Shown here in pieces: positions 5,783 through 62,897 of a stretch of DNA of 64,000 nucleotides. The position numbers and the translations under genes are program-made. Positions within the stretch are counted from its first letter, which is position 1. The number at the start of each line of letters is the position of its first letter. The notes beneath the pieces are model-generated. The model ran no database searches, was not told where the DNA came from, and worked only from the letters and a program-made list of their open reading frames with translations. Origin of the DNA: an uncultured virus (IMG/VR IMGVR_UViG_3300034157_000062) (lineage: Duplodnaviria > Heunggongvirae > Uroviricota > Caudoviricetes); the IMG/VR virus record IMGVR_UViG_3300034157_000062, one strand, 5' to 3'.

Positions 5783-6598
5783 ATGAATTTAAAACATGCA
5801 GACCTTTCCTTATTTGCTGGCGATATTGAACTGGTTACATTGCCGGGTGAATATTTGGATACTCTAAAGTTTCCTTATGTTTACGAAGACTTTAAAGAAA
5901 TCACAATCGTATTTGGTGACACAGGCATGAAGAATGATATTATGATTGAGTTTAAACTTTTTGAGCAATCAAAGCATATTGATTTTATTATTAATGGTAA
6001 TAATATTTGTTATGAACGCTTATTTAATTTTATTGATGAAAGTGCTGATGAGCCTATTACTACGGCTATATTTCAAAATTTTCAACTCACTGAAACCTTT
6101 ATGTTCCAGAAAGGATTTAATGCTTTTGCACGAAGAACACCTAACAAACCAGTAATTAGATGTTACAAAAATGGTGATTTAAAATATTTGAAGTTTATGC
6201 CAATTGACAATTTATATACTTATACCAATTACAGTGGTGTATCTAGATGGAATAAGCCTTATACACTTTGTTTTGATGACAGTGAACAGATTAAAAATTC
6301 GTCTTCAACTTTTTGGTTTCAGGATTATAAGCTTAATACAAAGAGCGAAATCATGAACATCAGTGAATATGTTGATCTTTTATATAACTTAACAGGTCAT
6401 ACGGTTGAGTGGAATCATTACACTTATGAATTTGAGTTTGATGATTATCAATTTACGCACTTAGATAAAATCATGTTTAATGTCTATATTTTTTTTGAAC
6501 ACTATGAAAAAAACTTAGGAAACCTATTTAAAGATAAAAATGCACTATTAAAAGCGACTGATGTAGAAAAGACTTTATTGCATATGCTAATTCTTTAA
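5783..6598 (+). CDS. Hypothetical protein, family A; C-terminal MxxL tag
   Basis: Paralog of 6650..7465 (LKHxDxS, FPYVYED, NKPV); ends HMLIL; GGAG SD. Confidence 0.75.
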   Translation: MNLKHADLSLFAGDIELVTLPGEYLDTLKFPYVYEDFKEITIVFGDTGMKNDIMIEFKLFEQSKHIDFIINGNNICYERLFNFIDESADEPITTAIFQNFQLTETFMFQKGFNAFARRTPNKPVIRCYKNGDLKYLKFMPIDNLYTYTNYSGVSRWNKPYTLCFDDSEQIKNSSSTFWFQDYKLNTKSEIMNISEYVDLLYNLTGHTVEWNHYTYEFEFDDYQFTHLDKIMFNVYIFFEHYEKNLGNLFKDKNALLKATDVEKTLLHMLIL

Positions 6599-6649
6599 AA
6601 TTTGACATTATAATCATAAGAAATTAACATGTTAACATAGGAGTTTTTT

Positions 6650-7465
6650 ATGGAATTAAAACATGTAGACATGTCATTCACTGCAGCAGGCAAAGAGATA
6701 TTAAGTGTCTCTGGTATTACTTTTGACAATACTCCATTCCCCTACGTTTACGAAGATATTGAAAAAGTAGTTATTCTCATTGATGATGACTTTGAAGAAA
6801 CCAAAGTTGTTGGATTAAATATTTACTTGTTGATTGACAATGAAACAAAACTCTTTAGATTTAATATCTTTGATAACGATTTGACAACACTCTTAAAAAC
6901 TATTGATAGCTCAGTAAAACCTCTGGTTATTGGATTCGACCCTTATTTTCAATTAATGAGTGTAAAGTTCATACCAAAAGGTATTTATGGCATGTACAAA
7001 GATAATGTAAACAAACCTGTTAGAACTATCTATGATGAATTAGGCACAATCAAATCTTTGACCTACCTTGATGTTGATCCTAATCAGTCTGACTTAAATT
7101 ATTATAATGCATCCTGTCATACGACACCTAAGTTTATTACTTATAATGAATTTGGTGAATTAGATGAAGAAAACTCTTATTTTTCAATTCATCGTAAGAA
7201 TACAACATTTATTGTAGCCAGCTATAAAGACCATATCGACTTAATATCCAAGATTACAAAAAAACAAGCTTCATTTAATTTAAGTGAACATAAGGTGATG
7301 TTTGATACTGAGTTACTTTCCAGCAATGAACTCATTTTACTTAGATTTTATTATTCTTTTGATTACTACAAGTTAAAGTTTAATCTTGAATACAAATCAA
7401 AAGAAGATATCTTTCATTTGAGTGATAATGAAATATCACTTATTTCTATGTTGTTGTTTCAATGA
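6650..7465 (+). CDS. Hypothetical protein, family A; tag with one extra residue
   Basis: Paralog of 5783..6598, same length (271 aa); ends SMLLFQ. Confidence 0.75.
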   Translation: MELKHVDMSFTAAGKEILSVSGITFDNTPFPYVYEDIEKVVILIDDDFEETKVVGLNIYLLIDNETKLFRFNIFDNDLTTLLKTIDSSVKPLVIGFDPYFQLMSVKFIPKGIYGMYKDNVNKPVRTIYDELGTIKSLTYLDVDPNQSDLNYYNASCHTTPKFITYNEFGELDEENSYFSIHRKNTTFIVASYKDHIDLISKITKKQASFNLSEHKVMFDTELLSSNELILLRFYYSFDYYKLKFNLEYKSKEDIFHLSDNEISLISMLLFQ

Positions 7466-7523
7466 AATATTTTACTTTTATTGAAAATAGGCTATTATTA
7501 TATAACAATTATAGGAGAATCTT

Positions 7524-7715
7524 ATGTCAATATCAGCAACACTTAAAAATGAAATTATAGCAATTGCAGGCGATGAAGGTTTTTGGAAATCTAGTTCAGA
7601 AGATACATTCTTGGAGGCAGGCGAATTGTTGATTAGTAAAGGTTTTTCAGAAGATGAAGTTGTTTAATTTTTATCTGAGTTGTATTATGCAACTTCCGCC
7701 TGTTATGGTGATTAA
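7524..7715 (+). pseudogene. Small ~63-codon gene interrupted by an in-frame TAA
   Basis: AGGAG-ATG; reads MSISATLKNEIIAIAGDEGFWKSSSEDTFLEAGELLISKGFSEDEVV*FLSELYYATSACYGD*; internal TAA at 7665-7667. Confidence 0.55.
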
Positions 7716-7753
7716 TTATTATTTATTATAACTAAAACCGCTTCGGCGGTTTT

Positions 7754-8548
7754 TTAGATTAGCCCCATCTCAATAACTTTAAGATAATCAAGCTTGACTT
7801 CTAGATTCATTTTATTCAGATCTGAATTATTCATATTCAAGTTTTCTATTAATAAACTATCAATATGCTCGTTCATCTTTTCAATACAGCCTTGTGTTAT
7901 ATTTAACAACTCAGACTCATGATTATGTTTGTTATCTGTATGTATATCAAGATACATGTAATATCTCTTTTTAGCAGTGAATGGAAACGCTATCAACAAT
8001 ACTGGATGTATGTCATTATTCTTAATGATGAAAACAACATCGACATTCAGTGTCTTTTCATAAATCATTTTTCCCCAAAAATCATCAAACTCCGCCATAA
8101 CATTTGAAAAAGTAATCGAACCTGCTGGTCTAAATGAACTTTTTTTGTTAATTAGTGTGCTTTTAAATTGTTCTTCTACTGAAAAGTTACCTATTGTAAA
8201 CTCTTTAATAAAACCATATTCAATACATAAATCAGTCACTTCTTTTAACACTCTATTAACAAGTTCATAGTCATAATTTTTTGAACGAAATAATTCATCA
8301 ATGACTGTATTGGTTACATAGTTAAAAGCCATTGTGCAGATGTATTCATACTGTGTATTCGGAATCATTCTATCTGGGGTTTCTTTGGTAAATACACAGG
8401 CCAGCGTACTGGTATTCCTTTGAACACTTTCATCAATGCCTACAATACGGTATTCATGATAGGTGTCTTTGGGATGTAAATACTTTTCAAATGGTGTGTT
8501 ATCAAACATTTTTTTGTACGCTGATAACAATATATCTCTATCTAACAT
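7754..8548 (-). CDS. Family B paralog; C-terminal EMxxI tag
   Basis: NYDYELV, IHP, DIH motifs; ends KLDYLKVIEMGLI. Confidence 0.8.
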   Translation of the reverse strand: MLDRDILLSAYKKMFDNTPFEKYLHPKDTYHEYRIVGIDESVQRNTSTLACVFTKETPDRMIPNTQYEYICTMAFNYVTNTVIDELFRSKNYDYELVNRVLKEVTDLCIEYGFIKEFTIGNFSVEEQFKSTLINKKSSFRPAGSITFSNVMAEFDDFWGKMIYEKTLNVDVVFIIKNNDIHPVLLIAFPFTAKKRYYMYLDIHTDNKHNHESELLNITQGCIEKMNEHIDSLLIENLNMNNSDLNKMNLEVKLDYLKVIEMGLI

Positions 8549-8564
8549 TAGGCCACCTCTTAAC

Positions 8565-9410
8565 TTAAATCATTGTCATCTCAGCGACTTTTAAATAATT
8601 CAATTTATCTTCAAAGGTCAGTGTTTCTAAAAATTTGTTTTTTAATTTTAATTCTTTACGAAGAATCATATCAATCCGCTCTTTTAATGTTTCATCAAGT
8701 TTTTCCAAGCCTTCTATTATCTTCTTTTCGTTAAACTCTTTTGCAGACGGATGAATGTCTAATGTAATCCCTTGTGTATGATTAATAGATACTGGAATTG
8801 AAACCAACGCAAATGGATGTATTTCACCATCTTTTACTACAAATTTGTAATAGACAGAAAGTCTTCTACTTTTCAGTTTACCTTTAAGAGCATTCTTCTT
8901 TGTTTTAAAGAAGTCGGTAAAGTTAATTTCGGATACTTTTATTCCAGTAGAAGTTAACTTGTTTGATTTTCCATTGGCTTGATAAGGAGCTTTAAAGAAA
9001 TTTTGTAGGCGTAAATCACCTATTGTGTCCATTGAGTCAAATAGTCCATAACCATGACCTATTTTATAAAAAGCATGGATAGCTTCATGAATAACATCAT
9101 AATTGTAATTGACGTTTTCAAAAAAAGAAGCGACCATTTTTTTATTCATATTAGCAAATTGAAATAAGCAATTGAAATCATAGTCATGATCTTTATACAT
9201 ATAATTATTGTTTTTTCCAAATCCCATCTGGATTGTTTGTTTAACATTTTCATCTTGTATTGATATGTCAGCATTTTGGATTTTATTTATGGCGATAATA
9301 GAACCAATGCTAGTCTGTCCACTTGCATCATAGAAGGATGGTTTATCAAAAAGAGTTCCATTGAATATTTTCAAGTAGGCTTCTAAACAAGTGATTTGAT
9401 CTTGATTCAT
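8565..9410 (-). CDS. Family B paralog; C-terminal EMxxI tag
   Basis: NYNYD, IHP, DIHP; ends KLNYLKVAEMTMI; start set at the GGAG-led ATG at 9410. Confidence 0.8.
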   Translation of the reverse strand: MNQDQITCLEAYLKIFNGTLFDKPSFYDASGQTSIGSIIAINKIQNADISIQDENVKQTIQMGFGKNNNYMYKDHDYDFNCLFQFANMNKKMVASFFENVNYNYDVIHEAIHAFYKIGHGYGLFDSMDTIGDLRLQNFFKAPYQANGKSNKLTSTGIKVSEINFTDFFKTKKNALKGKLKSRRLSVYYKFVVKDGEIHPFALVSIPVSINHTQGITLDIHPSAKEFNEKKIIEGLEKLDETLKERIDMILRKELKLKNKFLETLTFEDKLNYLKVAEMTMI

Positions 9411-9441
9411 TATTGACTCCATGAGTTTATCGACAATTTTA

Positions 9442-10272
9442 TCATATTTCTGACATTTCAGCAATTGTTAAATAATCTAGCTTCTCATCTATTGATAATT
9501 TTGATATTACCTTTGATTCCAAACCAAGTTCTTTTTTGAGCACCTTATTTATTCTATTTTGTAGTAATATATCCAACTCAACATAACGAGTCTTAATTTT
9601 TTGCTCTGAATCTTCGTCATTATCAGGATGTATATCTACAATTGTTCTTATGCTGACGTTAGGTGATATTGGAAACTCGATTATCGCTAATGGGTGTAAC
9701 TTGCTATTTATTAACATCATGTCGTAATGAACAGTAAGGTTTTTACCTTTTAATTTTTTTCGTGAACCCGGAGTCTTGTGAAGATCAGTTTTATAAAAGT
9801 TAGAAAACTGTATATTCGAAACGGTTCGAGAAGCAGATGTCGCCATTCTCTCACCATTTGACATGATAGAGCGTGTGGTAAGACCGTCTTCTATCTTAAA
9901 GTTTTTGATAGGTTTCATTGATTTAAATAGTTTATAACGTTCGCCTAATTTATAAAACTCTTTAATTGTTTTAATGATAAGATCATAATTATAACGATTA
10001 GCATCCAATAATTCGGATATCATCTGGTCGTTCATATTGATAAAGCCAACTGTGCATTCACAATCAACGTTTTTTAGATCAAATCTAAATCTGTTACTGA
10101 ACCCACAAAATATTTTGCTCACATTGTTAGACGTATTCATGTTATTTAGAAAACTAGCAACAATCGTAGAGGTAAACCATCGTTCATCATCACTAAAAAC
10201 AAGGTCAATAGTTTCTACAGTTTTAAAAGTATCTGAATAGGCGGTTAAAAATAGATCTTTATGCTCTGTCAT
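9442..10272 (-). CDS. Family B paralog; C-terminal EMxxI tag
   Basis: YNYD, LHP, DIHP; ends KLDYLTIAEMSEI; GGAG-led ATG at 10272. Confidence 0.8.
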   Translation of the reverse strand: MTEHKDLFLTAYSDTFKTVETIDLVFSDDERWFTSTIVASFLNNMNTSNNVSKIFCGFSNRFRFDLKNVDCECTVGFINMNDQMISELLDANRYNYDLIIKTIKEFYKLGERYKLFKSMKPIKNFKIEDGLTTRSIMSNGERMATSASRTVSNIQFSNFYKTDLHKTPGSRKKLKGKNLTVHYDMMLINSKLHPLAIIEFPISPNVSIRTIVDIHPDNDEDSEQKIKTRYVELDILLQNRINKVLKKELGLESKVISKLSIDEKLDYLTIAEMSEI

Positions 10273-10343
10273 TCTTATCTCCATAATCTACTAATTATAT
10301 CAAATTTCAGCTACTTAATCAATAATTACGTGTATTTTTTGAA

Positions 10344-11141
10344 TTAGATTTTGTTCATTTCAAGTACAGGGATATAACTTATTTTATCGTTTAATGACAT
10401 GTTAACGATTTCATCTTTTTTAATTTTAAGACTTCTATTTAATAAACCATCTAAGTGTTGCTCAAATTTTATAGTAACTTCATTTTTCAATTCTTCTAGA
10501 ACTTTTAATTGATTTTCTTTTTGAGATGGGTGTAGATTTATAGTTGTCATAAAATTATATGATGCACAATATGGAACAAATAAATACATTATTGGATGAA
10601 GTTCATTATCTTCGTTTATAAGAAATTGAATATTGTAATATATGAATTTGTTTAATGTTTTAATGCTTGAACCTTTTTCTTTTAAAAATGTTGATAGTTT
10701 TACCTTTGCTATATTTTTTAGACTTGTATAACGTTCATCACCGTTATTGGTAAAAGCTTCACTGATTTTAATGTTTTTTATTGTTGATATCTCTTGATAG
10801 AATTCAAAACGTTTACCAATATTAAAAATTTCTTTGATAATCTCATTAACTAACAAGTAGTTATAATTTTGAGCATCAATCATTTCATCGAAATATCTAT
10901 CTGGCATATTGGTGAACCTAATATCACAGGTATCCGTATATTCTATATTGTGAACTTTTACAGCATTTTGAGAAAAGGTTAAAGTTGTATAGTAGTTAGA
11001 TATAGTCTTATTTGGATTATTGTAAATACCGATAATTTGAGAAAGTGATTCATTGTTTTTTTGCACAATTTTAGTATCAATTGCTTTATCTTTTAAAAAG
11101 TTATTAAAAACTATTAAATATTGATCAGCTTTACTACTCAT
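10344..11141 (-). CDS. Family B paralog; C-terminal EMxxI tag
   Basis: NYNY, ELHP, INLHPS; ends KISYIPVLEMNKI. Confidence 0.8.
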   Translation of the reverse strand: MSSKADQYLIVFNNFLKDKAIDTKIVQKNNESLSQIIGIYNNPNKTISNYYTTLTFSQNAVKVHNIEYTDTCDIRFTNMPDRYFDEMIDAQNYNYLLVNEIIKEIFNIGKRFEFYQEISTIKNIKISEAFTNNGDERYTSLKNIAKVKLSTFLKEKGSSIKTLNKFIYYNIQFLINEDNELHPIMYLFVPYCASYNFMTTINLHPSQKENQLKVLEELKNEVTIKFEQHLDGLLNRSLKIKKDEIVNMSLNDKISYIPVLEMNKI

Positions 11142-11168
11142 ATATTTCACCTTTTATCCATTTAAATA

Positions 11169-11945
11169 TTATATTTTTGACATTTCTATAACAGGTATGT
11201 AATTTAATTTTTCATCTAATGCCATTTGAGATACATCAATATCGTCTACATTTAAATGACGATGAATATTGCTATCCAGTTGTTTTTCTAAAATATCTCT
11301 AAATTTTTCTTTTTCAATAACCATTTGATTAATTTGATCAGCCTTTTTTGAAGGATGCAAATTGATAGTAACTTTTACAAATGTTCTGTTAGCATATGGA
11401 AATTTCAATTCTATGATGGGATGAATTTCATTACTTTCTTTATTTTCCATCTTGAAATTAACATTAGAGATGATTTGTTCTACTGAACAATAGTCATTAT
11501 CAAACATGGCATCTGGTGTTATGTTCGCTATATTAACTGCCTTTTTTATAGACAATTCAAAAAAACTAGATACTTTTATTTTTTTATTTATTTTCATTTT
11601 TTTATAAATCTTAAAATCTTGTCCTATTTTAAAAAAATCATTAACAACTTCATATATTAAATCATAACTATAATCTGACTGATCTAGTATTTCTGTTATT
11701 TTATCTTGCATTATCCGTGAAAAATTTAAGGTACAATCACAGTTATAAGTAGTAGAAGCTATTTTAACACCTGTTCGATAGTTTTGAAAAATGCATTCAA
11801 TATATCCATTATACACATCTAGATTATGATCTATTCCAAATGAATTTTTAATAACATACACATCACCATCTTGTTCAGTGGTATTGTTTGGATTAATAAA
11901 ATTACCAAACATTTCATTGTAAGCATTTAAGTAATTGTTAGTCAT
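11169..11945 (-). CDS. Family B paralog; C-terminal EMxxI tag
   Basis: DYSYD, EIHP, INLHPS; ends KLNYIPVIEMSKI. Confidence 0.8.
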   Translation of the reverse strand: MTNNYLNAYNEMFGNFINPNNTTEQDGDVYVIKNSFGIDHNLDVYNGYIECIFQNYRTGVKIASTTYNCDCTLNFSRIMQDKITEILDQSDYSYDLIYEVVNDFFKIGQDFKIYKKMKINKKIKVSSFFELSIKKAVNIANITPDAMFDNDYCSVEQIISNVNFKMENKESNEIHPIIELKFPYANRTFVKVTINLHPSKKADQINQMVIEKEKFRDILEKQLDSNIHRHLNVDDIDVSQMALDEKLNYIPVIEMSKI

Positions 11946-12006
11946 CTTCACTCCTGATATATGTTTCAAATTTTTTTTGTTATATATTAAAATAAATATT
12001 TCAATT

Positions 12007-12783
12007 CTATATTCTTGCCATTTCTATAACAGGAATATAATTTAATTTTTCTTGCGTTGTCATTGTTATTAAATCTTCTTTTTTTAATTTAAGTTTTCTT
12101 TTTAAAACAGTATTAAGTTGTTCTTCCAATTCAGCAGTAAAATCTTTCTTTATTTGAATTAAATTTTTTATTTGTAATTCTCGCTGTGATGGATGCAAGT
12201 TAATAAAGCAAATAAAGTCGGCAGTTGAAGAGTAAGGGAAAAACAATGTAATGATTGGAAAGATTTCATTATTTTCAGACAAATAAAAATTTAAGTGTTG
12301 TTTCGATATCTTTTTCAAAGGATTATCATCTGTATATTTATCTGTTAAAAACCCTGATAATGTTAATTTTGTCAAGTTTTTAGAGCTGTTTCCTCTAGGA
12401 TAGCCGTTCTTCATGAAAGAGTCTTCTAATCTATTATTTTTAATAGGTGTCATACCTTTATAAAAATTATATGATTTACCTATTTTAAAGAGTTCATTGA
12501 TGGTTTTATCAATTAGGTCGTAATTATAGTTTTTAGCGTCAAATAGTTCTTTAACAGGTTGTTTAGATAAATTTTTAAAAGAAATATTACAAGTACAACT
12601 ATAAGGCTTTGACATAATATTAACATTGACTTTATGAAATCTACAAGACACAAATAGGCTCATTATATCGTAACCATAAATGGTTTTTGTTTCTGTCTTA
12701 TCAATATGATCTTCAGTAGAAAAAGGTTTTTGTCCAAAGAAATCATTAAATATTTCTACATAATTTGGTTCTTTATTGTTCAT
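12007..12783 (-). CDS. Family B paralog; C-terminal EMxxI tag (TAG stop)
   Basis: NYNYD, EIFP, INLHPS; ends KLNYIPVIEMARI-TAG. Confidence 0.8.
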   Translation of the reverse strand: MNNKEPNYVEIFNDFFGQKPFSTEDHIDKTETKTIYGYDIMSLFVSCRFHKVNVNIMSKPYSCTCNISFKNLSKQPVKELFDAKNYNYDLIDKTINELFKIGKSYNFYKGMTPIKNNRLEDSFMKNGYPRGNSSKNLTKLTLSGFLTDKYTDDNPLKKISKQHLNFYLSENNEIFPIITLFFPYSSTADFICFINLHPSQRELQIKNLIQIKKDFTAELEEQLNTVLKRKLKLKKEDLITMTTQEKLNYIPVIEMARI

Positions 12784-12811: not shown

Positions 12812-13600
12812 TTAAATTCTAGCCATCTGGACAACGGGAAGATAATTCTTTTTCTCTTCTAGCGTCATCTTAGACAATTCATTTTTCTTAATTTTTAAAA
12901 ATTTTGTTAGAACAAAATCTAAATGTGTAATCAGCAAACTTTCAAATTCTTTCAAAATAACAGGAATATGCTTAATTTGTTCATCTCTTTTGGATGGATG
13001 AAGATTAATTGACATTCTAGTAAATTTTGAGACTGAATAGGGGATTGCTAAGTTTAATACAGGATGAATTTCATTATCATCCGATATCATAAAAGCCAGA
13101 TGAACGATTGCAGTTTTCTTTGTCGGCTTCCCACTGGCGTTTTTGTCGGCTAATACTGTTGAAAGTGCTAACTTTGTCACTGTAGGGACAAATACGGCCT
13201 TTTGTATTCCATTCTTATTGAAGTTATTTTCCAACTTAATATTTTGAATAGGTGACATTTCAGTATAGAAGCTAAAATCTTTACCTAATTTAAATAGCTC
13301 ATTGATGATTTGTTCAACTACATCATAATTATAATCGTTGTCTCTAAAAAGGTAGGCGACATCACCCTCACTCATATTCGTTAAATGAAAGCTACAATCA
13401 TTCTTATAGATAGTGTCTGCGATAGTGACAGGAAATGCACACTTTTTAAAATGACAACGAAGTATTTTATTATCAAAAGGTGAATTGTTCATGACATTGT
13501 AATCACCACGTTCATTTCTTATAGTAGTGTATTCAGGTCTAATAGACTTTCCAAAAAAATCACTGAAAGCTTCAATGTGTTTTAGTTCTTGTTCTTTCAT
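12812..13600 (-). CDS. Family B paralog; C-terminal QMxxI tag
   Basis: DYNYD, EIHP, INLHPS; ends KKNYLPVVQMARI. Confidence 0.8.
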   Translation of the reverse strand: MKEQELKHIEAFSDFFGKSIRPEYTTIRNERGDYNVMNNSPFDNKILRCHFKKCAFPVTIADTIYKNDCSFHLTNMSEGDVAYLFRDNDYNYDVVEQIINELFKLGKDFSFYTEMSPIQNIKLENNFNKNGIQKAVFVPTVTKLALSTVLADKNASGKPTKKTAIVHLAFMISDDNEIHPVLNLAIPYSVSKFTRMSINLHPSKRDEQIKHIPVILKEFESLLITHLDFVLTKFLKIKKNELSKMTLEEKKNYLPVVQMARI

Positions 13601-13612: not shown

Positions 13613-14188
13613 TTAAATTTTAATCATGTGGAACAGTTCCAACTCTTCTTTTGAATACTTATTTAGTGGCTTTTCCAAAAAGAATTGAAACAGTTGCTGA
13701 TAAAAATCTTCATAAATTTTATCAACAGCAATATTTATTTTTGTCAACTGACTTGGATACAAATAAAACGAGAAGGAAGCCGCAATAGTTTGTACTTTTA
13801 TCGTTGGAACTGCATACAATTTTTTAGAACGCTTGTTGTAATAAAAATAAGGTTCTTCTAGGTAAATACGCACATTTCTATCATTTTTTATAAGGGATTC
13901 ATATTTTTTAAAGAAAGCCATGTTTTCTTCATAGACTTCAATAATTTTATCGTATACCTCTTTATTTGACGCTTCAAAAATTTTATCATAGTTTTCTGGT
14001 GATTCTCTTTTTCTGATAGAAGCTATGTTCCCGTTACTTAAATTTGCAAAAGGATAGGGATAAGAACCATCGTTAGCTTCATCACTGTAAAGCCAAATCT
14101 CTGAATCTGTTTTGTTGTCAGGTTCAGGTATTCTGACTTCTTTTTTATCTTTGTTAATAATCTCTAAAATTTTTTCTTCAAGTGTCAT
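13613..14188 (-). CDS. Hypothetical protein with C-terminal MxxI tag
   Basis: GAGG SD; ends YSKEELELFHMIKI. Confidence 0.7.
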   Translation of the reverse strand: MTLEEKILEIINKDKKEVRIPEPDNKTDSEIWLYSDEANDGSYPYPFANLSNGNIASIRKRESPENYDKIFEASNKEVYDKIIEVYEENMAFFKKYESLIKNDRNVRIYLEEPYFYYNKRSKKLYAVPTIKVQTIAASFSFYLYPSQLTKINIAVDKIYEDFYQQLFQFFLEKPLNKYSKEELELFHMIKI

Positions 14189-17258: not shown

Positions 17259-17990
17259 TTGACAATGAATATAAAATCATTTTTTCAATCGTTCTACATA
17301 AAAAACTATTATACTCTTAGTATGTTGATTAGTACAATATTTATTACACTTGGATTATTTATTCCAAAGACAGTGAGTGATTTTCAAAATAATGAATTAT
17401 TTTTTAAATTAACAGAATATTTTTTTATTATTATTTTTAGTATTATATTTATTTTTAGCCTATTCATGTATATAAAAAGCTTTTTTATACATTTATTTGT
17501 TGTTCGAAATAGTAAAGATACTGCAAAATTTCAAAAAATCCTTTTTTTTGCAATTGTTTTTTTAAAACTATATCTTTATGCTAATATATTTAAACTCAAT
17601 AAAAACGATGGTCAAATTTATTCTGATGACTATTTGTATTCGTGTATTTATTTTGTTCATACATTATATATAGCGAGTCTTTTATTATTTATTTCTTTTT
17701 ATATTTATGATTTTACAATATTTTTAAAAAAAGAGTTGGATTCGTGTCATTGGATAGATAAATATCTGGCGTACAACCAGATAAGAAACAAGAAAAACAT
17801 TAAAATAGACGGTAAAATTGTCTCTATTCATTTTAATGGGTTTTCATTGAATGAGTTATCAAATACGCTTACATTCATGAATAATGATTTAAAAATATCT
17901 TCATTTAGAGCGTATATGGATGAAAATAAATATAAATTAAATGATTTAACATATGAAGAAGTATTAATAATAAAAATGATAGGAATTTGA
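17259..17990 (+). CDS. Family C 4-TM membrane protein; C-terminal MxxI tag
   Basis: Four hydrophobic segments; HWI..YL..xQ, FRxY; ends NDLTYEEVLIIKMIGI. Confidence 0.78.
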   Translation: MTMNIKSFFQSFYIKNYYTLSMLISTIFITLGLFIPKTVSDFQNNELFFKLTEYFFIIIFSIIFIFSLFMYIKSFFIHLFVVRNSKDTAKFQKILFFAIVFLKLYLYANIFKLNKNDGQIYSDDYLYSCIYFVHTLYIASLLLFISFYIYDFTIFLKKELDSCHWIDKYLAYNQIRNKKNIKIDGKIVSIHFNGFSLNELSNTLTFMNNDLKISSFRAYMDENKYKLNDLTYEEVLIIKMIGI

Positions 17991-18724
17991 CCATTATGAA
18001 AATGAAATCAATATTACCAGAATTCTACTTTAAGAACTACCATTCTTTTGTATTGTTCAATGCTGCCCTTTTTCTTATTATGGCTTTGCCTTTTCCTGAA
18101 CAAGACGACTGGTCACTCAATGGTATGCGATATTTCTTAGAATTCCCCATTATGTTCATTCTGGCCGCACTTATTATTTGGAACTTATGTTTGTATTCAA
18201 AAAGTTTTATTTCAAAGTCTTATTCTTCAATACAACATAATATGTCGGACTCTTTGACGGTTTATTCAGTGTATGGAGTTGTCCTCTTAAAATCAATGTT
18301 TCATGTCTTGTGCCTTTCTTCTTATGTTAATGAAACCAATGTGATCAAGTTTCCATCGCAAGACTGGATGTTAGGAACCATGTGTTTATTTTATTTTATG
18401 TACATTGTGGCAATAGGCCATTTTGTTTTTCTTTCAATTAAGGGGACTTATATTCGATATATGTCACCTGTGACGAATAACCACTGGATTATGGATTTCT
18501 TAAATCCTAAACAGTTACGCAAAGTTAAGAATGTTTCAGCTAACGGACAAATCGTATCTGTTTATTTTAAAGGATTTCTTCTTGATGAAACGGATAACAG
18601 TGTGATCATTAGAAAACATAAACTTAAATTGAATGCATTTCGAGACTACATAACCATGAATAATTTTAAAGTTGATGATTTAAGTGATGAAGAACTTACA
18701 GTTATCGAAATGTTAGGTATATAG
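17987..18724 (+). CDS. Family C 4-TM membrane protein; C-terminal MxxI tag (TAG stop)
   Basis: HWI, KQ, FRDY; ends DDLSDEELTVIEMLGI-TAG. Confidence 0.78.
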   Translation: MTIMKMKSILPEFYFKNYHSFVLFNAALFLIMALPFPEQDDWSLNGMRYFLEFPIMFILAALIIWNLCLYSKSFISKSYSSIQHNMSDSLTVYSVYGVVLLKSMFHVLCLSSYVNETNVIKFPSQDWMLGTMCLFYFMYIVAIGHFVFLSIKGTYIRYMSPVTNNHWIMDFLNPKQLRKVKNVSANGQIVSVYFKGFLLDETDNSVIIRKHKLKLNAFRDYITMNNFKVDDLSDEELTVIEMLGI

Positions 18725-18740: not shown

Positions 18741-19454
18741 ATGAAAGAACTGTTCACAAAAAAACATTTCAAAGATAATGCTTTGTTTGTTTTATTCGCT
18801 TCTACTTTTATTTTTGGATGTACGTTTTTTTTGATGAATATAAGAAATGTTATTTTTGATAAAGATAGTGCTAATTTTGATCAACCTACCGCTTTTTTTT
18901 ACAGTTACTTATTATTTAATTCTTTAATAGGCATTGTATTTAATTTATTTGTGTTAGTTCGCAATATTTTATCGGGTAGTTCATCCATTATCTCAGGTGG
19001 TGAATTTTATATAAAATTAAGAAAATATTTCCTTATTATAATTTTTTTAAATGTAGTGACTATATTCTACACTTGTGCAAGTGAAAATTTAAATCAAATA
19101 GTCTATATTATTTTATTTGGGATAACTAGCTTGTCAAATATTATATTTTTAGTGCGAACCATTCCTTTTTGTGAATTAGATGGTCTTGCTAAACAAGCTC
19201 ATTCAGTTGACCATTGGGTGTATCCATATCTAAACGATAAGCAATTGAAACAGCTTAGGATCGTCAATGAAACCAATAATCAATTTATGATTGCATTACC
19301 TAATATTGTATTATCCGATGGTGGTAACTGGTTAAGGTATTATGAAAACGAATACAATCTTTCATCATTTAGAAGTTATATTGAAACCAAATCTTGTAAA
19401 TTAAATGATTTAAATAAAGACGATTTTATAATTATATCTATGTTAGGTATATAA
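18741..19454 (+). CDS. Family C 4-TM membrane protein; C-terminal MxxI tag
   Basis: HWV..YL.DKQ, FRSY; ends NDLNKDDFIIISMLGI. Confidence 0.78.
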   Translation: MKELFTKKHFKDNALFVLFASTFIFGCTFFLMNIRNVIFDKDSANFDQPTAFFYSYLLFNSLIGIVFNLFVLVRNILSGSSSIISGGEFYIKLRKYFLIIIFLNVVTIFYTCASENLNQIVYIILFGITSLSNIIFLVRTIPFCELDGLAKQAHSVDHWVYPYLNDKQLKQLRIVNETNNQFMIALPNIVLSDGGNWLRYYENEYNLSSFRSYIETKSCKLNDLNKDDFIIISMLGI

Positions 19455-19456: not shown

Positions 19457-20167
19457 ATGTTAAATAAAATTAGTATACCGAGTTTCTACCTGTATAATTA
19501 TCACTCTCTCAATATTGTAGCGTGTTTACTTGTGATTGCTTTCAGGTTTATTGTGGGTGATAACTATTTTTCATCAATGCCCTACATTGATAGTTTTATC
19601 CATTATTCATTAATAGTAATGATTGTTATCAATACAGTGATGCTCATTAAATCATTTATGATGAAAACTTACACAAGTATTAATGAGACACCAAAAGATA
19701 CTTATCTCATTATGGCTTTTATTATCCTTATGTCTTTTAAGTCATGTATAATGATGCTTACATTATTTAGTTGGATTATTAATTTTAAAAATGATTATAT
19801 GAATGGAACAATTGATGTTATAATAGGTTGTTTTTTTATCATGTATTTTATTTTATATCTATTCTTTTTATATTTTGGATTCCTAGGTATTAGAACTAGA
19901 ATTAAACACGTTAAGATTAATAATCACTGGGTCTTTCAGTATTTGAGTGACAAACAAATCAGAAGTGTTAAAACTTATCAGGAAGAAGGTAAAGTGATCG
20001 GCCTTTACTTTAAAGGCTTCTTTATGGATGAAGATAAGAATAGCTTAGTCATTAAAGATAAAAAAATAACACTCAGCGATTTTAAAATGTATATTAAAGA
20101 AAAAGATTGTAAAATTGATGACTTGACCCAAGAAGATATTGCAATCATGGAAATGTTAAGTATTTAA
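19457..20167 (+). CDS. Family C 4-TM membrane protein; C-terminal MxxI tag
   Basis: HWV..YLSDKQ; ends DDLTQEDIAIMEMLSI. Confidence 0.78.
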   Translation: MLNKISIPSFYLYNYHSLNIVACLLVIAFRFIVGDNYFSSMPYIDSFIHYSLIVMIVINTVMLIKSFMMKTYTSINETPKDTYLIMAFIILMSFKSCIMMLTLFSWIINFKNDYMNGTIDVIIGCFFIMYFILYLFFLYFGFLGIRTRIKHVKINNHWVFQYLSDKQIRSVKTYQEEGKVIGLYFKGFFMDEDKNSLVIKDKKITLSDFKMYIKEKDCKIDDLTQEDIAIMEMLSI

Positions 20168-21437: not shown

Positions 21438-21439
21438 TA

Positions 21440-49857: not shown

Positions 49858-49885
49858 AGACTCATTTTAACAGGAGATTTTAAAA

Positions 49886-51165: not shown

Positions 51166-51825
51166 TTATATATTTAACATCTCGATCAGTTTATTATAAC
51201 TGCCTATATTTTTCAAAAATATTTCATTATTTTCATCAATAATATCGAGCATTAAGATTTCAGATAACAATATTTTTAATGAATTAATGTTATCTTGTGA
51301 TAACTGGGTCTTTGATTTGTCTATATACGCCAAGAGTATTTTTGTTATTAAAGTCCACTCATTCGTTTTCGTGTATCGGTTAAACCTTAATTCAACATCT
51401 CCACCATAAGGCACTGCACCTTGAGCATAAGATTTATATTCTAATTCACCAAAATAAGGAATTGTTAATTTTTTGGTGTTGTTATAATTGTTAAAGTTGT
51501 CGAATCCAGTTTCTGTTATTAATAAGTCACTTATCGTTTTTATTTCACCGGGTTCAAACATCACTTCATCAGCTATAATAATTGTTTCACCACTTGACAT
51601 ATATTCAAGAACAGCCACCTCATTCAGTCTGCCATTTATTCGTGTTCTTATTGGGATGGTTTTTTTATTTCTAAATTCAAGTGTTAAATTAAATGGATAA
51701 TATTTTGAAAACATATAGAAAAGAAACTTTTCTGGAAAAATATTGGTTTGGTCCATCGCCATGTTTTGAGCAATGAGCAATAAGTTAGAGTGTGCTTCGC
51801 TTTCAGCTAGAGTTTTAAAAATCAT
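51166..51825 (-). CDS. Hypothetical protein with C-terminal EMxxI tag
   Basis: Ends SYNKLIEMLNI. Confidence 0.7.
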   Translation of the reverse strand: MIFKTLAESEAHSNLLLIAQNMAMDQTNIFPEKFLFYMFSKYYPFNLTLEFRNKKTIPIRTRINGRLNEVAVLEYMSSGETIIIADEVMFEPGEIKTISDLLITETGFDNFNNYNNTKKLTIPYFGELEYKSYAQGAVPYGGDVELRFNRYTKTNEWTLITKILLAYIDKSKTQLSQDNINSLKILLSEILMLDIIDENNEIFLKNIGSYNKLIEMLNI

Positions 51826-53137: not shown

Positions 53138-53737
53138 TTATTCTCCTAATAGTTTATCATTAAATTTTTTGCCGATTTTGTTAATCTTTTTCCACTTGAT
53201 TTTAAAGCTGGTTGATTCAATACCACCAAACATAGCAGCATTGCTGTGAATCTCACAGAAACCAGTAATCAATAGGGTTGCAGCGAACGGAAGTGCATAG
53301 AAATCTTCAAAGTCATCCATTTTAAGTAAATGAATGTCCATGTCATGCTCCATCAATTGAGCTTGAAGTTCAGTGCCACCGATTTTACGCCAGATTAGAC
53401 CAGATGCTTGTGCATGGTCAGGGAAGTGACGGTTACCATTTTCATCAATCGTTAAACAGAATGGCTTACCACAGTCGTGATAAATCTGATACGTTTTGAT
53501 GTCTTTGTCGTCTGCCAAGTTGTTCCAGATAGATTTGTTGTAAATCCAATCAGGAAGTCTCCATTCGAGAGCTAATGGTTTTCCATCAATAATGTGATCT
53601 TTCAAATCTTGAAAGTATTTATTGACTGACAATCCATGTTGAAGAACATTCATGCCTTGTGTTTGTTCACAAGCTTTCATCTCTTTAACAAGATCGTTGA
53701 AGCTAAGGTTTTCAATTTTATCAATCTACATAGTCAT
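53138..53737 (-). CDS. HD-domain protein whose SD-led start is followed by an in-frame TAG (predicted readthrough)
   Basis: YHDCGKP, HFPDHA, HDMDIH. Start reads TAGGAG-N7-ATG ACT ATG TAG ATT GAT AAA, in frame with the ORF-track CDS (TAG at 53728-53726). Confidence 0.75.
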
Positions 53738-56899: not shown

Positions 56900-56924
56900 G
56901 AACAATGAAAATAATAGGTGTACA

Positions 56925-58019: not shown

Positions 58020-58020
58020 T

Positions 58021-58614
58021 ATGATTATTTTTATTGTAATAGTCATGTCATTGATGATGGTTCTAGCCGTTGCTCTAGCACCCCATGCAGTAGACGAAAA
58101 TCGTAAACAAGTTGATCAACCTAATTCACCAATTGAAATGCATATTGAAAGACAAACAGTACAAAATGTAACCACATTACCTAAAAAAGTGATTGCTGAG
58201 CCGGTGGTGAAGGCTGAACCTGTTAAAGTCGTTGTTAAAGAAGTGACACCACAAATTAACAATTATAATTTTGAGAGTTTAAGCAAGGTTTTAATGTATG
58301 TTTTAGCAATGGTTGGTTCATTCTTTTCTTTGAAATGGTTAATTAAACTTTTTAAATATTATAAAATGAATCGTAAGTTTAAAATAAATGCAAAGAAAAC
58401 GAATAAATTAGTAGATAGTTTGAGAAAAACGATTGATAATCAAAAAGAATTCTTAGAAATAGCTGATATGATTGAACATCAATTAAATATCAATGATATT
58501 TTATTGAGAAGTGAAGAATCAAAAACATATGGACTCGACCTAGAATTAGCAGATGGATATCTTGATAAAGAATATAAGTTCATTAATAGTAAGTTAATTA
58601 ATATTTTGAATTAA
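58021..58614 (+). CDS. Family E two-TM protein
   Basis: NNYNFESLSK followed by a TM segment; KKTNKL...QLNIN. Confidence 0.72.
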   Translation: MIIFIVIVMSLMMVLAVALAPHAVDENRKQVDQPNSPIEMHIERQTVQNVTTLPKKVIAEPVVKAEPVKVVVKEVTPQINNYNFESLSKVLMYVLAMVGSFFSLKWLIKLFKYYKMNRKFKINAKKTNKLVDSLRKTIDNQKEFLEIADMIEHQLNINDILLRSEESKTYGLDLELADGYLDKEYKFINSKLINILN

Positions 58615-59433: not shown

Positions 59434-60192
59434 TTAAACCATGTACATTTTCAACACATCAAACATACTTATATCTTTTATAACTTCTTTTATATCAAAA
59501 ATTTCTTTTAATTTTTTATATTGCGGTGCATCTAGATACATATACATGATCGTTTCTTCCATTGTCTCACACCACTCTGGAATTTCTCTTCTTTTCATAT
59601 TCTTATAAAAAAATGAAATCGTAGAGAACATGATGTTCGTATGTTTCTCATAATATACATTAAATTTATACATGGAATTACGACCAATACCATATAAATC
59701 ACCTTCATCATCATTGAAAGGATTCATAACCGCTATATCTATACTTCTGATTTTTGTTAAATCGAAATCTTTATAACTGACCATTGCATATAATTCTAAA
59801 TTATATTTATTACCTTCATCAAAAAACTCTGCAAAAAATTCTGAATTATAACCTTCTATCAAATCTTTTGCTTTAACTTTAAGATAAACAGTCAATGCGT
59901 CGATTTCTGCAGATTGTTTCGCTTTTACGTCATCTAAGAAATCTTTTGTGAAAACAGTTTTCAAACTTGAAATGTTCTCGTAAAACAAATGACTTCTTTT
60001 TTCCATATACTCATACGACCATTCATATTGCTCATCACTTAAATAGTCGTCATCATCATAACAACAACAAAATGAATCACAACATGAATCGTCACCCCAT
60101 ATTTCAAGGGCGATCTTATTTGTAAATTTTTTATTAAATTCTTTGCATTTGGAATTACTGAGGTGTCTTACTGCGTTGCTATATGTGACCAT
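59434..60192 (-). CDS. Hypothetical protein with Cys/Asp cluster and C-terminal MxxV tag
   Basis: SCCDSFCCCYDDDDY; ends FDVLKMYMV; AGGAGA SD. Confidence 0.75.
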   Translation of the reverse strand: MVTYSNAVRHLSNSKCKEFNKKFTNKIALEIWGDDSCCDSFCCCYDDDDYLSDEQYEWSYEYMEKRSHLFYENISSLKTVFTKDFLDDVKAKQSAEIDALTVYLKVKAKDLIEGYNSEFFAEFFDEGNKYNLELYAMVSYKDFDLTKIRSIDIAVMNPFNDDEGDLYGIGRNSMYKFNVYYEKHTNIMFSTISFFYKNMKRREIPEWCETMEETIMYMYLDAPQYKKLKEIFDIKEVIKDISMFDVLKMYMV

Positions 60193-60340: not shown

Positions 60341-60360
60341 TAATGTGTGAATATTCTTCT

Positions 60361-60389: not shown

Positions 60390-60390
60390 G

Positions 60391-61422
60391 TTAAAAATTC
60401 AACATTGCTACTAAATCAAAGAAGGCTTGCGGATTGTCTTCTAATTCATCTAATTCCAACTCAATTTCGTATTTTTCAAAATACTTTTTAAACTGATAAT
60501 GGAAGATAATCTTTTTGAAGAATTCTTTTGAGTAAGATTTTTTCAAACGAAGATAACCATGTGGTGTCATTGATATAGCATAGTAAGCAGGTTTCTTTAA
60601 AAATTCAAAGTTTCTGATTTCAATCGTGAAATGTTTATAACCCGATTGTTTTATGTAACGCTCGTTAAATTTTTTAAGAACAATGGTACCATCTTTCTCT
60701 TTTACCTTCTTTTCATAAACGTCAGACTGTTGTAAACGAACTTCAAGTTTTAAATTAGGTATCAACTCTCCATTTGAACCAATTTTGAATTCTTCTTTCT
60801 GAGCAATTTCAACGATAAAATTGATAGAATTTTTAATAAAATAGTTTAATGTTCGACTGTTTTGTTTTCTGGGTGGCGATAATTCAACCTCACCATATTG
60901 AGAAAAGACATCAATGATTTCTTTAATACAGTGATCCGCAATCGGTTTTATTTGTTCATCAAATATTTTTCTATGTTCATTAGCTTTATTGTGTTTGTAT
61001 TTGGTCATATAATCGAGTGTTATATTATAATTATATTCAGGAATTAAATCAGAACGGTAAGTAGACTTGAATACGTCCTTAGCTAACAAAATATTTGGAC
61101 TTGATGCTAGTTGTTCTTTTAATCCATAAATTCTAGACGTTGGAAATTTACTGTGGTTTTTATTAACAATGAAAGAATGACTTATATATTCTTTCTTTTC
61201 GTCTTCAGCGGTAGGATTAAATGTAACCATATTTTTGTTGGCTGATGTCACAAATAAGAAATCTTCTGTTATTTGAACAGAGGCTTTGGGAATAAGAAAG
61301 TCACGATTTTTACTTGTTTCATACAAGCTTTTAAATATGCTTAATGCATTAACTCCAACAGGTGAATTCTTCCAATCACTGGGTGTTAGCTTGCTTAATT
61401 TTTCAAATTCAATAAAATACAT
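60391..61422 (-). CDS. Hypothetical protein with C-terminal MxxF tag
   Basis: Ends FFDLVAMLNF. Confidence 0.72.
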   Translation of the reverse strand: MYFIEFEKLSKLTPSDWKNSPVGVNALSIFKSLYETSKNRDFLIPKASVQITEDFLFVTSANKNMVTFNPTAEDEKKEYISHSFIVNKNHSKFPTSRIYGLKEQLASSPNILLAKDVFKSTYRSDLIPEYNYNITLDYMTKYKHNKANEHRKIFDEQIKPIADHCIKEIIDVFSQYGEVELSPPRKQNSRTLNYFIKNSINFIVEIAQKEEFKIGSNGELIPNLKLEVRLQQSDVYEKKVKEKDGTIVLKKFNERYIKQSGYKHFTIEIRNFEFLKKPAYYAISMTPHGYLRLKKSYSKEFFKKIIFHYQFKKYFEKYEIELELDELEDNPQAFFDLVAMLNF

Positions 61423-61425
61423 AAG

Positions 61426-62187
61426 TTAAACTCTCCACATGTCGTATACCATTTTGTATCTGTCGAAGTTGTTCTGAAAATCTTCCAGACTTACCTCTAT
61501 ACCTATTTTTTTAGTCATTTTTTTGTACAATCTTGTATAAATACAGTTTTCTACAAATTTATCCCTATTTTCTTCTGTTGACGCCACTTCAATTTGTTTT
61601 AATGGGTTTAATAATTCTAAACCTTCCACATCACTTGTTAAAAAAAACATTCTTGCATTGTAAACATACAGTTCACTGTACATAAACTCTATTAATCTGT
61701 CTGTCTCAACATGATAATAGAAACGCGATTCAGTTAAGTTTGTATAGGTTATTCTTTTACCATCAATATTAAAAGGAACATACATGTTCACTCTGGTTAA
61801 GTAAGCTGTATCTTTTTTATCTTTTAACCGAACCTTTGATGTATTTAGACTTCTCACATCTTCAAGATTAAAACAACCTAATTCTACCAATTTGTTAACA
61901 TAGACTTCACGTAGCTCTCTACATTTTTTAGCATAGTCTTTAATTTGTAAAAAATTATTGGGTGCCCATTTTTCAGCACTCTCTCTTTTGAAATCTTCAT
62001 TATCCAGTTCTAATAGACAACTTCCATCTGGTAAATATTTTTGTGTATTAACATAGGCAATTCTATCGCCGTTGTTGTTATTAAGAACCAAAATTAAATC
62101 ACTACTGTTTGCTTTTTTAACATACATTGAATGATTAGGCGTAGGATCTTTTTTCAGTATAAATTTACTCATTATTAGACCTTCCAC
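61426..62187 (-). CDS. Family D paralog; C-terminal DMxxV tag
   Basis: LPxGxCLLEL, YTNLT, KKIGI; ends YDMWRV. Confidence 0.78.
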   Translation of the reverse strand: MEGLIMSKFILKKDPTPNHSMYVKKANSSDLILVLNNNNGDRIAYVNTQKYLPDGSCLLELDNEDFKRESAEKWAPNNFLQIKDYAKKCRELREVYVNKLVELGCFNLEDVRSLNTSKVRLKDKKDTAYLTRVNMYVPFNIDGKRITYTNLTESRFYYHVETDRLIEFMYSELYVYNARMFFLTSDVEGLELLNPLKQIEVASTEENRDKFVENCIYTRLYKKMTKKIGIEVSLEDFQNNFDRYKMVYDMWRV

Positions 62188-62897
62188 ATGTCATAAATAG
62201 CTTTATAACTATCGAAGTTCTTTTGAAAATCATTCATATCAACGTCTATTCCTATTTTTTTAGTGATTCTTTTATGTAGTCTTTCGTTAATGCATGTATG
62301 TAACATCTCATCTTGCGTTTCTTTTGGATAAGCGACTTCTACACTTTTTAATAGCTTACAGAACTCTAATCCTTCAAAGTCACTACTGAGAAAAGTCATC
62401 TTGGCGTTGTAAACAAATAATTCAACACATACAAACTCTATAATCAGATCTAACTGAATGTGGTAAAACATTTTATTCAGTGTAAGGTTTGTATATATCT
62501 TTTTAACGCCATTGAAGTCAAATGGCACTCTCATTACTGTTTTTTCTAAATATTCTTCTTCTGTAATACTGTCAGCGTGATACAGTTTGGATATTTCACC
62601 CATATCAATACAACCCATTTCAATGAGTTTATTCAAATAAACTTTTCTAATTTTTTTATTCTTTTCATATTTACCTTGAACCAATGAGACATATTTTTTT
62701 CCTAATTGTCTAGTTTGCTTTGCTTGGGGAATATCCATTTCTAATTCAAGTAGACAATTTCCATTAGGCAACCATTTTTCAGAAATCGTTCTAGCAATTT
62801 GCACAGATTGTTTATCATCAGTCGCATGGTTAAGGTATAAGCCACCTACGCTGCTACTGTATGGAAATTTATCCTCTCTAAAACTAAATCTATTCAT
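62175..62897 (-). CDS. Family D paralog; C-terminal DMxxV tag
   Basis: Same motifs; ends YDMWKV. Confidence 0.78.
   Translation of the reverse strand: MNRFSFREDKFPYSSSVGGLYLNHATDDKQSVQIARTISEKWLPNGNCLLELEMDIPQAKQTRQLGKKYVSLVQGKYEKNKKIRKVYLNKLIEMGCIDMGEISKLYHADSITEEEYLEKTVMRVPFDFNGVKKIYTNLTLNKMFYHIQLDLIIEFVCVELFVYNAKMTFLSSDFEGLEFCKLLKSVEVAYPKETQDEMLHTCINERLHKRITKKIGIDVDMNDFQKNFDSYKAIYDMWKV

Follow-up and report, generated by a model that had tools for sequence, protein, structure and literature searches.

Why should proteins that look unrelated end in nearly the same residues? The question is raised by IMGVR_UViG_3300034157_000062, an uncultured-virus record of IMG/VR, of which a stretch of 64,000 nucleotides was analysed; this whole stretch is called the window here. 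Nineteen of its genes encode proteins with the C-terminal tail M-x-x-hydrophobic-COOH. An initial annotation of the window had listed 18 to 19 such proteins from about eight families and had taken the tail for a portable address label read by one receptor of the same element; all 19 listed termini were present at these genes. We read the tail as a docking helix that a shared partner would grip, this partner being most likely a type IVB receptor, and we give this two-layer statement as a whole a rough probability of 0.4. The wider proposition, that one shared partner, whatever its kind, reads the tail as a common handle, we hold to be slightly better than an even bet. Export or transfer specifically, which is argued by analogy, is doubtful.

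The tail was counted on 70 non-overlapping open reading frames (ORFs) of the window, each of at least 90 amino acids, and a carrier was defined as an ORF ending in M..[ILVF]-stop. The carriers are often arranged as tandem arrays. By BLAST they form family A (2 genes), family B (7), family C (4), family D (2) and families E, F, G and H (1 each). They are as follows.

5783..6598, plus strand: family A, 271 residues, ends ...LLHMLIL
6650..7465, plus strand: family A, 271 residues, ends ...LISMLLFQ
7754..8548, minus strand: family B, 264 residues, ends ...VIEMGLI
8565..9464, minus strand: family B, 299 residues, ends ...VAEMTMI
9442..10284, minus strand: family B, 280 residues, ends ...IAEMSEI
10344..11150, minus strand: family B, 268 residues, ends ...VLEMNKI; first row of the AlphaFold2 model alignment
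11169..11969, minus strand: family B, 266 residues, ends ...VIEMSKI
12007..12783, minus strand: family B, 258 residues, ends ...VIEMARI
12812..13600, minus strand: family B, 262 residues, ends ...VVQMARI
13613..14188, minus strand: family E, 191 residues, ends ...LFHMIKI
17259..17990, plus strand: family C, 243 residues, four membrane helices and a C-terminal soluble domain, ends ...IIKMIGI
17987..18724, plus strand: family C, 245 residues, ends ...VIEMLGI; first row of the AlphaFold2 model alignment
18741..19454, plus strand: family C, 237 residues, ends ...IISMLGI
19457..20167, plus strand: family C, 236 residues, ends ...IMEMLSI
51166..51825, minus strand: family F, 219 residues, ends ...LIEMLNI
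59434..60192, minus strand: family G, 252 residues, ends ...VLKMYMV
60391..61422, minus strand: family H, 343 residues, ends ...LVAMLNF
61426..62187, minus strand: family D, 253 residues, ends ...VYDMWRV
62175..62897, minus strand: family D, 240 residues, ends ...IYDMWKV

The tail stood directly at the stop codon in 18 of these 19 carriers. The exception, at 6650..7465, ends in MLLFQ, one residue past the tail, and its orthologs in three relatives end in MLLF. The rule first proposed, Met fixed at -4 with I, V, L or F last, held for 18 termini; the initial annotation had marked this copy as one residue longer, and its extra residue is absent from its orthologs.

Counting the tag against background had been suggested as a check on the initial annotation. 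Run on the 70 ORFs, the count was far above chance: M-x-x-[ILVF]-stop ended 18 of them, against 0.59 expected. The background was taken from 154 occurrences at 18,209 internal positions (0.0085) and from 56 occurrences before 6,283 stop codons in any frame (0.0089). The binomial P value was 7e-22 per gene, where paralogs are non-independent, and 1.9e-8 per family (8 of 54 BLAST families). A second sequence was examined in the same way, a relative of 181,270 bp that is an IMG/VR record classed as 'provirus'; it was read whole, its positions 95.9-150.4 kb are syntenic with the window, and 131 of its ORFs (126 kb) were scanned with Pfam. The tail was found on 39 of its 194 ORFs of at least 80 amino acids. 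Pooled over window and relative, carriers made up 57 of 264 ORFs and 27 of 165 BLAST clusters.

An origin of the pattern in chance, in AT-rich composition or in a DNA-level signal at gene ends has next to no probability. The genome is AT-rich (28-35% GC in the window, 31% in the relative), hence Ile, Lys and Asn are common; yet stop codons in any frame were preceded by the pattern only at the background rate, and the pattern was kept in orthologs down to less than 25% identity. All three stop codons and several synonymous codons occurred in the tail coding sequences, and therefore selection acts at the protein level. On the same variation of synonymous sites an overlapping start codon was rejected along with a DNA-level signal. 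Read-through into a longer domain was rejected as well, as the next genes begin within a few bases of the carrier stops.

Aligned from the C-terminus, the tails share a helical consensus of about 14-16 residues, hydrophobic-[T/S]-x-x-[D/E]-hydrophobic-x-hydrophobic-hydrophobic-x-M-x-x-hydrophobic-COOH. Met at -4 was invariant, both in the 19 window tails in this C-terminus-anchored alignment (19 of 19) and in the carrier clusters of window and relative (27 of 27). Positions -7 and -6 were hydrophobic in 19 of 19 window tails, -9/-10 hydrophobic or aromatic, and -5 acidic in 11 of 19. Upstream lie a [T/S]-x-x-[D/E] helix-cap box near -13 and an acidic/N-cap block from -15 to -10, with acidic residues enriched at -15 (14 of 27 clusters), -12, -11 and -5. 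The family B tail has a four-residue insert. The initial annotation had placed an amphipathic helix, often L(S/T)xx(E/D), before a four-residue tag; the conserved piece is longer than that tag.

To score the tail apart from its defining residues, a position matrix anchored at the C-terminus was built with -1 and -4 ignored and each family left out in turn. The mean was +4.2 bits for the left-out carrier families, -9.7 for the C-termini of the 138 other clusters and -11.3 for 521 internal M..hydrophobic sites, and 24 of the 27 left-out families lay above the 95th percentile of the internal sites. The top non-carriers by this matrix were decayed versions of the tail (..EMSKY, ..RMYEY, ..DMCHT and ..EALKY); within paralog groups, some copies had Met changed to Ile or a changed last residue. 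A local HMMER tail profile, also with one family left out, gave scores too low for so short a motif, and the anchored matrix was used instead. The best non-carrier matches of the HMMER profile were C-terminal near-variants (..MLIE, ..MSKY and MLLFQ).

The tail was also conserved among homologs. For the family B protein of 12007-12783, M..[IF] was kept in 10 of 10 database homologs, with -3 and -2 variable. Among full-length cluster representatives of family B at no more than 50% mutual identity, Met was kept in 30 of 31 and M..[ILVF] in 27 of 31. Over 15 ortholog pairs, identity was 0.73 in the last 14 residues as against 0.53 in the body (Wilcoxon P = 0.0017); position -4 was kept in 15 of the 15 pairs, -6 in 14, -3 in 9 and -2 in 8. 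The tail is under purifying selection.

Three other explanations of the consensus were considered and rejected: a membrane-targeting amphipathic helix, as the tail is acidic, not basic, and also occurs on integral membrane proteins; a site for a Glu-specific prohead protease before the Met, as no more than 9 of 27 clusters have Glu at -5; and a CaaX-like box with Met in place of Cys, for which there is no known chemistry and in which -2 and -3 are not aliphatic.

The bodies that carry the tail had been described as looking unrelated and as including both soluble and membrane proteins, and the comparisons agreed with this. There were no cross-family BLAST matches among the eight families. HHalign gave a probability of at most 2.8% for all 28 of the 28 family pairs, and its best alignments were often just the tails of 15-17 residues; family C has four membrane helices. 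An exhaustive search of 1.84 billion representatives with the family B profile returned 39 clusters, all of them same-sized proteins or fragments, and none of the other carrier families. Searching 5.8 billion proteins with the tail profile returned only orthologs of families A-E; this search was limited by its word index and is uninformative on further families. For family B, no relative was found by a profile scan of a genome collection, tblastn found nothing in phages or plasmids, and the ESM Atlas gave no usable match. No window carrier had a match in NCBIfam, PADLOC or PHROGs, apart from one NCBIfam row far below threshold. A Shiga toxin A-subunit assignment for 10344-11150 was rejected as noise, since it scored 19 bits against a cut-off of 730, was absent in the six other family B members, and no such fold came up in the fold search. 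For family H (60391-61422), the nearest entries in the ESM Atlas were unnamed clusters of giant viruses (Nucleocytoviricota), with a score of 0.90 and 172 shared features; mRNA_triPase is present in a few of their members. We note this as a weak lead only.

Carriers differed from other proteins in annotation and in size. No recognisable enzyme was said to carry the tag, and Pfam agreed: its cut-off was passed by 0 of 19 window carriers and by 19 of the 51 other ORFs (Fisher P = 0.0016). Over window and relative, a Pfam domain above the cut-off was present in 0 of 43 carriers versus 49 of 158 other ORFs (P = 1.4e-6). Carriers were 124-492 residues long, with a median of 257 and an interquartile range of 234-272, compared with 178-312 for other ORFs.

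Within the set of 264 proteins, hidden Markov models (HMMs) linked a few clusters that BLAST had kept separate, and most clusters remained unlinked. The N-terminal domain of family F was remotely like a 332-residue carrier of the relative (E 4e-5), and two carrier clusters were linked through their last ~65 residues (E 8e-4). An ORF of the relative, 79968-80681 on the plus strand (237 residues), adjoins the Leu-tRNA array and matched positions 6-232 of the 268 of the family B profile (E 0.006); it is without the C-terminal helices and the tail, which make up the last ~36 profile positions. One carrier of 492 residues has a central domain (phrog_21276) in common with jumbo-phage proteins. These homologs cover only 31% of the carrier and are without the tail-bearing part. 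The joining of a phage-borne domain to a tail-bearing extension in this carrier, together with the tail-less family B-like ORF, is evidence of modularity of the tail.

Structures were modelled for two families with AlphaFold2, each from 25 sequences. The family B model had a predicted local distance difference test score (pLDDT) of 88.8 and a predicted template modelling score of 0.85, and was composed of two alpha+beta halves, with strands at 167-205, a 34-residue helix at 208-241, two short helices and the tail helix at 260-267. Its pLDDT was 95 in the two ten-residue blocks before the tail and 86 at the last residues. The family C model (pLDDT 75.3) had four membrane helices and a small beta-meander, followed by strands at 181-214, a helix at 215-225 and the tail helix at 234-244, with pLDDT values of 68-83 there and of 68-79 at the last residues. 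In both families the preceding ~50 residues were conserved and structured in the models, and the last 60 residues appeared to align without indels, so that no flexible linker was seen. The family B model had no match in the PDB (Foldseek best E 0.028; best VIA Z 4.2) and none in BFVD (best E 0.004). A fold search with the family C model gave matches to generic helical bundles only, all of them over the membrane part (best Z 8.8). By the positive-inside rule, the soluble domain of family C probably faces the cytoplasm.

These models bear directly on an explanation with no external reader, in which the tail would form the final helix of a small subdomain at the C-terminus, common to the carriers and built in the order sheet, helix, linker and tail helix. 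The subdomain would have come down from one huge, fast-evolving class or been captured repeatedly; it would cap the fold or self-associate, and the rest of each protein would have diverged. We regard this as a serious rival, though less likely than not. It agrees with the structured tails, with the order of elements, which is the same in the models of families B and C, with the apparent lack of indels in their last 60 residues, and with the narrow range of carrier lengths and the absence of Pfam domains. The few HMM links between carrier clusters, that of family F to the 332-residue carrier and the one through the last ~65 residues, point the same way. On the other side, a tail packed into its own protein core would accept Leu, Ile or Phe, yet Met is invariant in 27 clusters. 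Four-helix membrane carriers and soluble alpha+beta carriers have no detectable homology, one carrier is a clear domain fusion, and the idea of a same subdomain draws on the order of secondary structure only.

For their own packing, unrelated folds would not each require a Met at one and the same position; the invariant Met, the fixed hydrophobic face and the free positions -2, -3, -5 and -8 argue for one shared partner. On this reading, the tail would be a conserved C-terminal docking helix borne by a large, fast-evolving repertoire of lineage-specific proteins. All tails would face the cytoplasm, those of the four-helix membrane family included, as the positive-inside reading and the family C model suggest. 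One shared partner would grip the hydrophobic face made by Met -4 and residues -1, -6, -7 and -9, while -2, -3, -5 and -8 would be exposed and free to vary. The likeliest partner would belong to a type IVB transfer machine (Dot/Icm or I-type conjugation) and serve as its substrate receptor, and the carriers would be cargo which such a machine delivers into recipient or target cells; type IVB effectors that span the membrane are reportedly known. Export was ranked first on account of the Dot/Icm-like marks of the tail, the type IVB-style pilin genes of the window and look-alike replicons with Dot/Icm parts. Among the candidates of the initial annotation (virion packaging or ejection, secretion, scaffold docking, degradation), a secretion signal would, by analogy only, be the best fit.

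Several results weigh against a docking helix for export. No reader of the tail was identified, and general Pfam scans found no type IV secretion family in the 70 window ORFs or the 131 ORFs of the relative. Dot/Icm signals come nowhere near so strict a consensus. In both modelled families the tail is a structured last helix. All carriers are orphans, most of 234-272 residues, which also fits one class of common origin. The effector-like proteins of the relative, namely a eukaryote-type kinase, an ART-PolyVal protein, a NIF phosphatase, a HipA-like kinase and a protein of 2309 residues, have no tail. Likeness to the pMEGA megaplasmids, from which part of the argument is drawn, is a likeness in kind of replicon. 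What survives of the portable label read by one element-encoded receptor is the invariant Met, a tail conserved above the body, its fixed C-terminal position and the domain-fusion carrier; the receptor was not found, and the structured last helix, the narrow sizes and the restriction to orphans leave a loose tag unsupported.

A different reader was suggested by a gene of the window itself.

31485-33782, minus strand: ClpA-like ATPase, 765 residues, best NCBIfam match ClpA

The tail would then be read by the ClpA-like unfoldase of the replicon, as a timed degron or as the constant handle of a library of ClpA-ClpP adaptors. The protein has an IGF loop at the ClpP-docking position (aligned to the IGL/IGF of ClpAs) and a strongly divergent N-domain, barely alignable to those of other ClpAs; it is 93% identical in the relative, and ClpA in the genome-collection scan was at ~40-49% among the matches listed. 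As the case of ClpV and VipB illustrates, N-domains of the Clp family are able to bind helical peptides. Nothing links the ClpA-like protein to the tail, however, and known ClpA tags are accessible and unstructured, whereas the models have the tail in a packed helix. Pfam scans of the stretches read showed neither ClpP nor ClpS, and no clpS or clpP adjoins 31485-33782. Clp proteases are described as ordinary megaplasmid cargo in the main text of the pMEGA report (10.1101/2025.09.30.679422). We consider this explanation quite unlikely. That the element encodes its own ClpA was correct as to a ClpA-like protein with a docking loop; the protein is nevertheless divergent, with an NCBIfam score of 785 bits against an equivalog cut-off of 993.

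Docking on some other hub, such as a sliding-clamp-like ring, a scaffold or a compartment shell, also seems improbable. It would share with the preferred docking helix a common partner for acidic-hydrophobic C-termini like those known from phage T4. However, the T4 consensus LDFLF(G) occurred in no window tail, about one fifth of the ORFs, membrane proteins included, is too many for a replication toolbelt, and there was no clamp, shell or scaffold family among the Pfam matches in 245 kb.

What kind of replicon carries the tail bears on the remaining candidate of the initial annotation, a signal for virion packaging or ejection. Expression signals of the window are bacterial, with AGGAG-type Shine-Dalgarno sites, TTGACA-17-TATAAT promoters and hairpin-plus-T-run terminators. 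A contig of 1,917,244 bp encodes proteins identical to those of the window, and contigs of 1.84-1.86 Mb carry relatives; there was no close match to the window replicon in PLSDB or in complete E. coli genomes. Only 19 of the 70 window ORFs reached the Pfam cut-off. Matches in Pfam and NCBIfam included a class I tRNA synthetase (IleS by NCBIfam), the ClpA-like ATPase, an LplT-Aas fusion, YqeY, SufE, a fusion of pantetheine-phosphate adenylyltransferase and dephospho-CoA kinase, Sir2, PTH2, MGMT, dCMP deaminase, an RNA-ligase/phosphoesterase fusion, a PilS-domain pilin and a PepSY protein. The 131 ORFs of the relative also encode more tRNA synthetases, RtcB, UvdE, Fpg, GAPDH, asparagine synthase and OmpA, and a eukaryote-type kinase, a NIF phosphatase and an ART-PolyVal protein. 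It has two tRNA arrays, at 77.6-79.5 kb (13 tRNAs in 2 kb, 11 of them Leu with several anticodons) and at 156.1-158.2 kb (12 tRNAs in 2.2 kb, with 6 Ala, 3 Arg and 2 Met); two of the tRNA predictions in these arrays have odd anticodon loops. No tRNA genes were found in the 64-kb window. General scans of window and relative (245 kb) revealed no relaxase, Rep, type IV secretion, rRNA or ribosomal protein genes. Rather than a small phage, the 'element' of the initial annotation is a bacterial replicon of megabase size, plasmid- or phage-like in kind, and its ClpA-like gene belongs to a large set of housekeeping-type genes that it has borrowed.

That the tail directs packaging into, or ejection from, the virion of a giant phage is highly unlikely. 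IMG/VR classes the relative as a provirus, several non-carrier genes have jumbo-phage homologs, and the relative has tRNA arrays, all of which would suit a phage. Against this, the 58 window ORFs and 131 ORFs of the relative that were scanned included no capsid, portal, terminase or tail family, the whole 181-kb relative had no terminase, and the replicon is of ~1.9 Mb. Window and relative encode outer-membrane and OmpA-like proteins, pilins and transporters. Similar published elements are classed as plasmids, with no phage proteins reported in the main text (10.1101/2025.09.30.679422). With structural phage families absent from the 245 kb read, the packaging candidate found no support.

Returning to the docking helix, its widest form would make the tail a universal plug by which hundreds of fast-evolving, target-binding orphans per replicon are coupled to a single element-encoded machine. 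That machine would be a type IVB apparatus injecting recipient or rival cells, or a divergent ClpA-ClpP with the carriers as adaptors. We think this extension rather unlikely. If true, bacteria would have a counterpart to the F-box/PRANC logic known from eukaryotes and poxviruses, and the tail would be the first signal of its kind, for export or docking, whose consensus is strict and readable.

As a kind, C-terminal tags for docking and export are already known. New here are the strict consensus with an invariant Met, the coverage of about one fifth of the proteome, and the occurrence only on orphans of giant AT-rich replicons. Literature searches found no paper describing such a tail, and the word 'C-terminal' has 0 occurrences in the main text of the pMEGA preprint (10.1101/2025.09.30.679422). 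About 70-80% of the genes of giant AT-rich replicons are orphans, and their biology is almost unreadable; a strict, position-fixed tail sorts such dark-matter proteins into one functional class by sequence, and the tail peptide offers a short bait for finding the machine that would read it. Should the reader be a transfer system, the tail would be a rare secretion signal with a sharp consensus, useful for cargo prediction and reporters. Should it be a built-in terminal element, it would mark a very large, undescribed and fast-evolving protein class.

Other genes of the two sequences deserve mention. At 102-2321 (plus strand) the window encodes a 739-residue protein in which a calcineurin-like phosphoesterase is fused to a T4-type RNA ligase, with a full-length match to phrog_8238 (E 7e-113); this fusion, with RtcB, HAD_SAK_2 and further RNA-ligase/phosphoesterase ORFs of the relative, suggests an extensive set of RNA-repair genes. 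At 42201-43343 (minus strand), one protein of 380 residues joins pantetheine-phosphate adenylyltransferase to dephospho-CoA kinase, two enzymes that bacteria usually encode in separate genes. The 180-residue product of 53138-53680 (minus strand) belongs to phrog_14850 (function unknown), and has homologs of 41-52% identity in jumbo phages of Ralstonia, Xanthomonas, Stenotrophomonas, Tenacibaculum and Cronobacter. Two pairs of tandem paralogs of ~410 residues, 35-37% identical and with neither tail nor family match, are located at 20199-22660 and 48589-51118 (both plus strand), the first coming after the family C array on the same strand. Four tandem pilin-like paralogs at 55582-58614 (plus strand), one with a weak match to the N-terminal methylation motif, have a common C-terminal pattern of their own, F-I/T-E-R-x-hydrophobic..., and a 280-residue protein with a PilS domain in its C-terminal half is encoded at 30529-31371 (minus strand). 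In the relative, the 2309-residue protein (67179-74108, plus strand) has an N-terminal Mbeg1-like domain as its sole match, and 161.5-171 kb encodes the ART-PolyVal protein (636 residues) and the HipA-like kinase, the latter with a weak LepB_N match.

How far, then, does the tail resemble known systems? Poxvirus ankyrin proteins end in a PRANC/F-box element, a domain of ~40-50 residues with a known host partner, and their bodies are recognisable repeats. The carriers are like them in having a variable body with a constant C-terminal element, in tandem expansion and in fast evolution; they differ in that their bodies are unrelated.

In phage T4, the proteins gp43, gp55 and gp33 have interchangeable acidic-hydrophobic C-termini that are read by the clamp gp45 (PMC2988020; PMC6212786), and the clamp-binding consensus is LDFLF(G) (PMC6212786). 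A variable flexible linker precedes it. The tail is acidic-hydrophobic and C-terminal, as these epitopes are. However, the T4 epitopes are confined to a handful of replication and transcription proteins and stand on a flexible linker, whereas the tail is found on about one fifth of the ORFs, membrane proteins included, with no linker seen. In the stretches scanned, there was no clamp family among the Pfam matches.

The pMEGA elements of Enterobacteriaceae, as described in the main text of their report, have ~26% GC, reach 1.58 Mb, consist to ~80% of hypothetical genes and hold up to 208 tRNAs in blocks; they encode Dot/Icm and Vir parts, pilins, Clp proteases, tRNA synthetases and runs of sequential paralogs, and the Dot/Icm parts and pilins are both encoded and expressed (10.1101/2025.09.30.679422). 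The replicon resembles these megaplasmids in kind. Judged by that text, the likeness extends to megabase size, very low GC, mostly hypothetical genes, blocks of tRNAs for one amino acid (in the relative), sequential paralogs, tRNA synthetases, a Clp-type gene, pilins, phosphatases and NAD/deacetylase genes. Unlike pMEGA at up to 1.58 Mb, the lineage studied here is larger, with contigs of 1.84-1.92 Mb.

The closest comparison is with the Dot/Icm substrates of Legionella and Coxiella. Their signals lie at the extreme C-terminus, with a hydrophobic residue at -3 or -4 and a Glu-rich E-block upstream (PMC3052360; PMC9302130), and they are diverse, with no strict consensus (PMC3052360). The signals are also taken as exposed; the tail is unlike them in its invariant Met, its fixed spacing and its packed helix in the models. 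It is like them in its place at the extreme C-terminus, in the hydrophobic residue at -3/-4 (here Met -4) and in the acidic residues upstream. The substrates themselves number in the hundreds, are mostly orphans and are often paralogous; the carriers likewise are orphan and paralogous, and some of them are membrane proteins.

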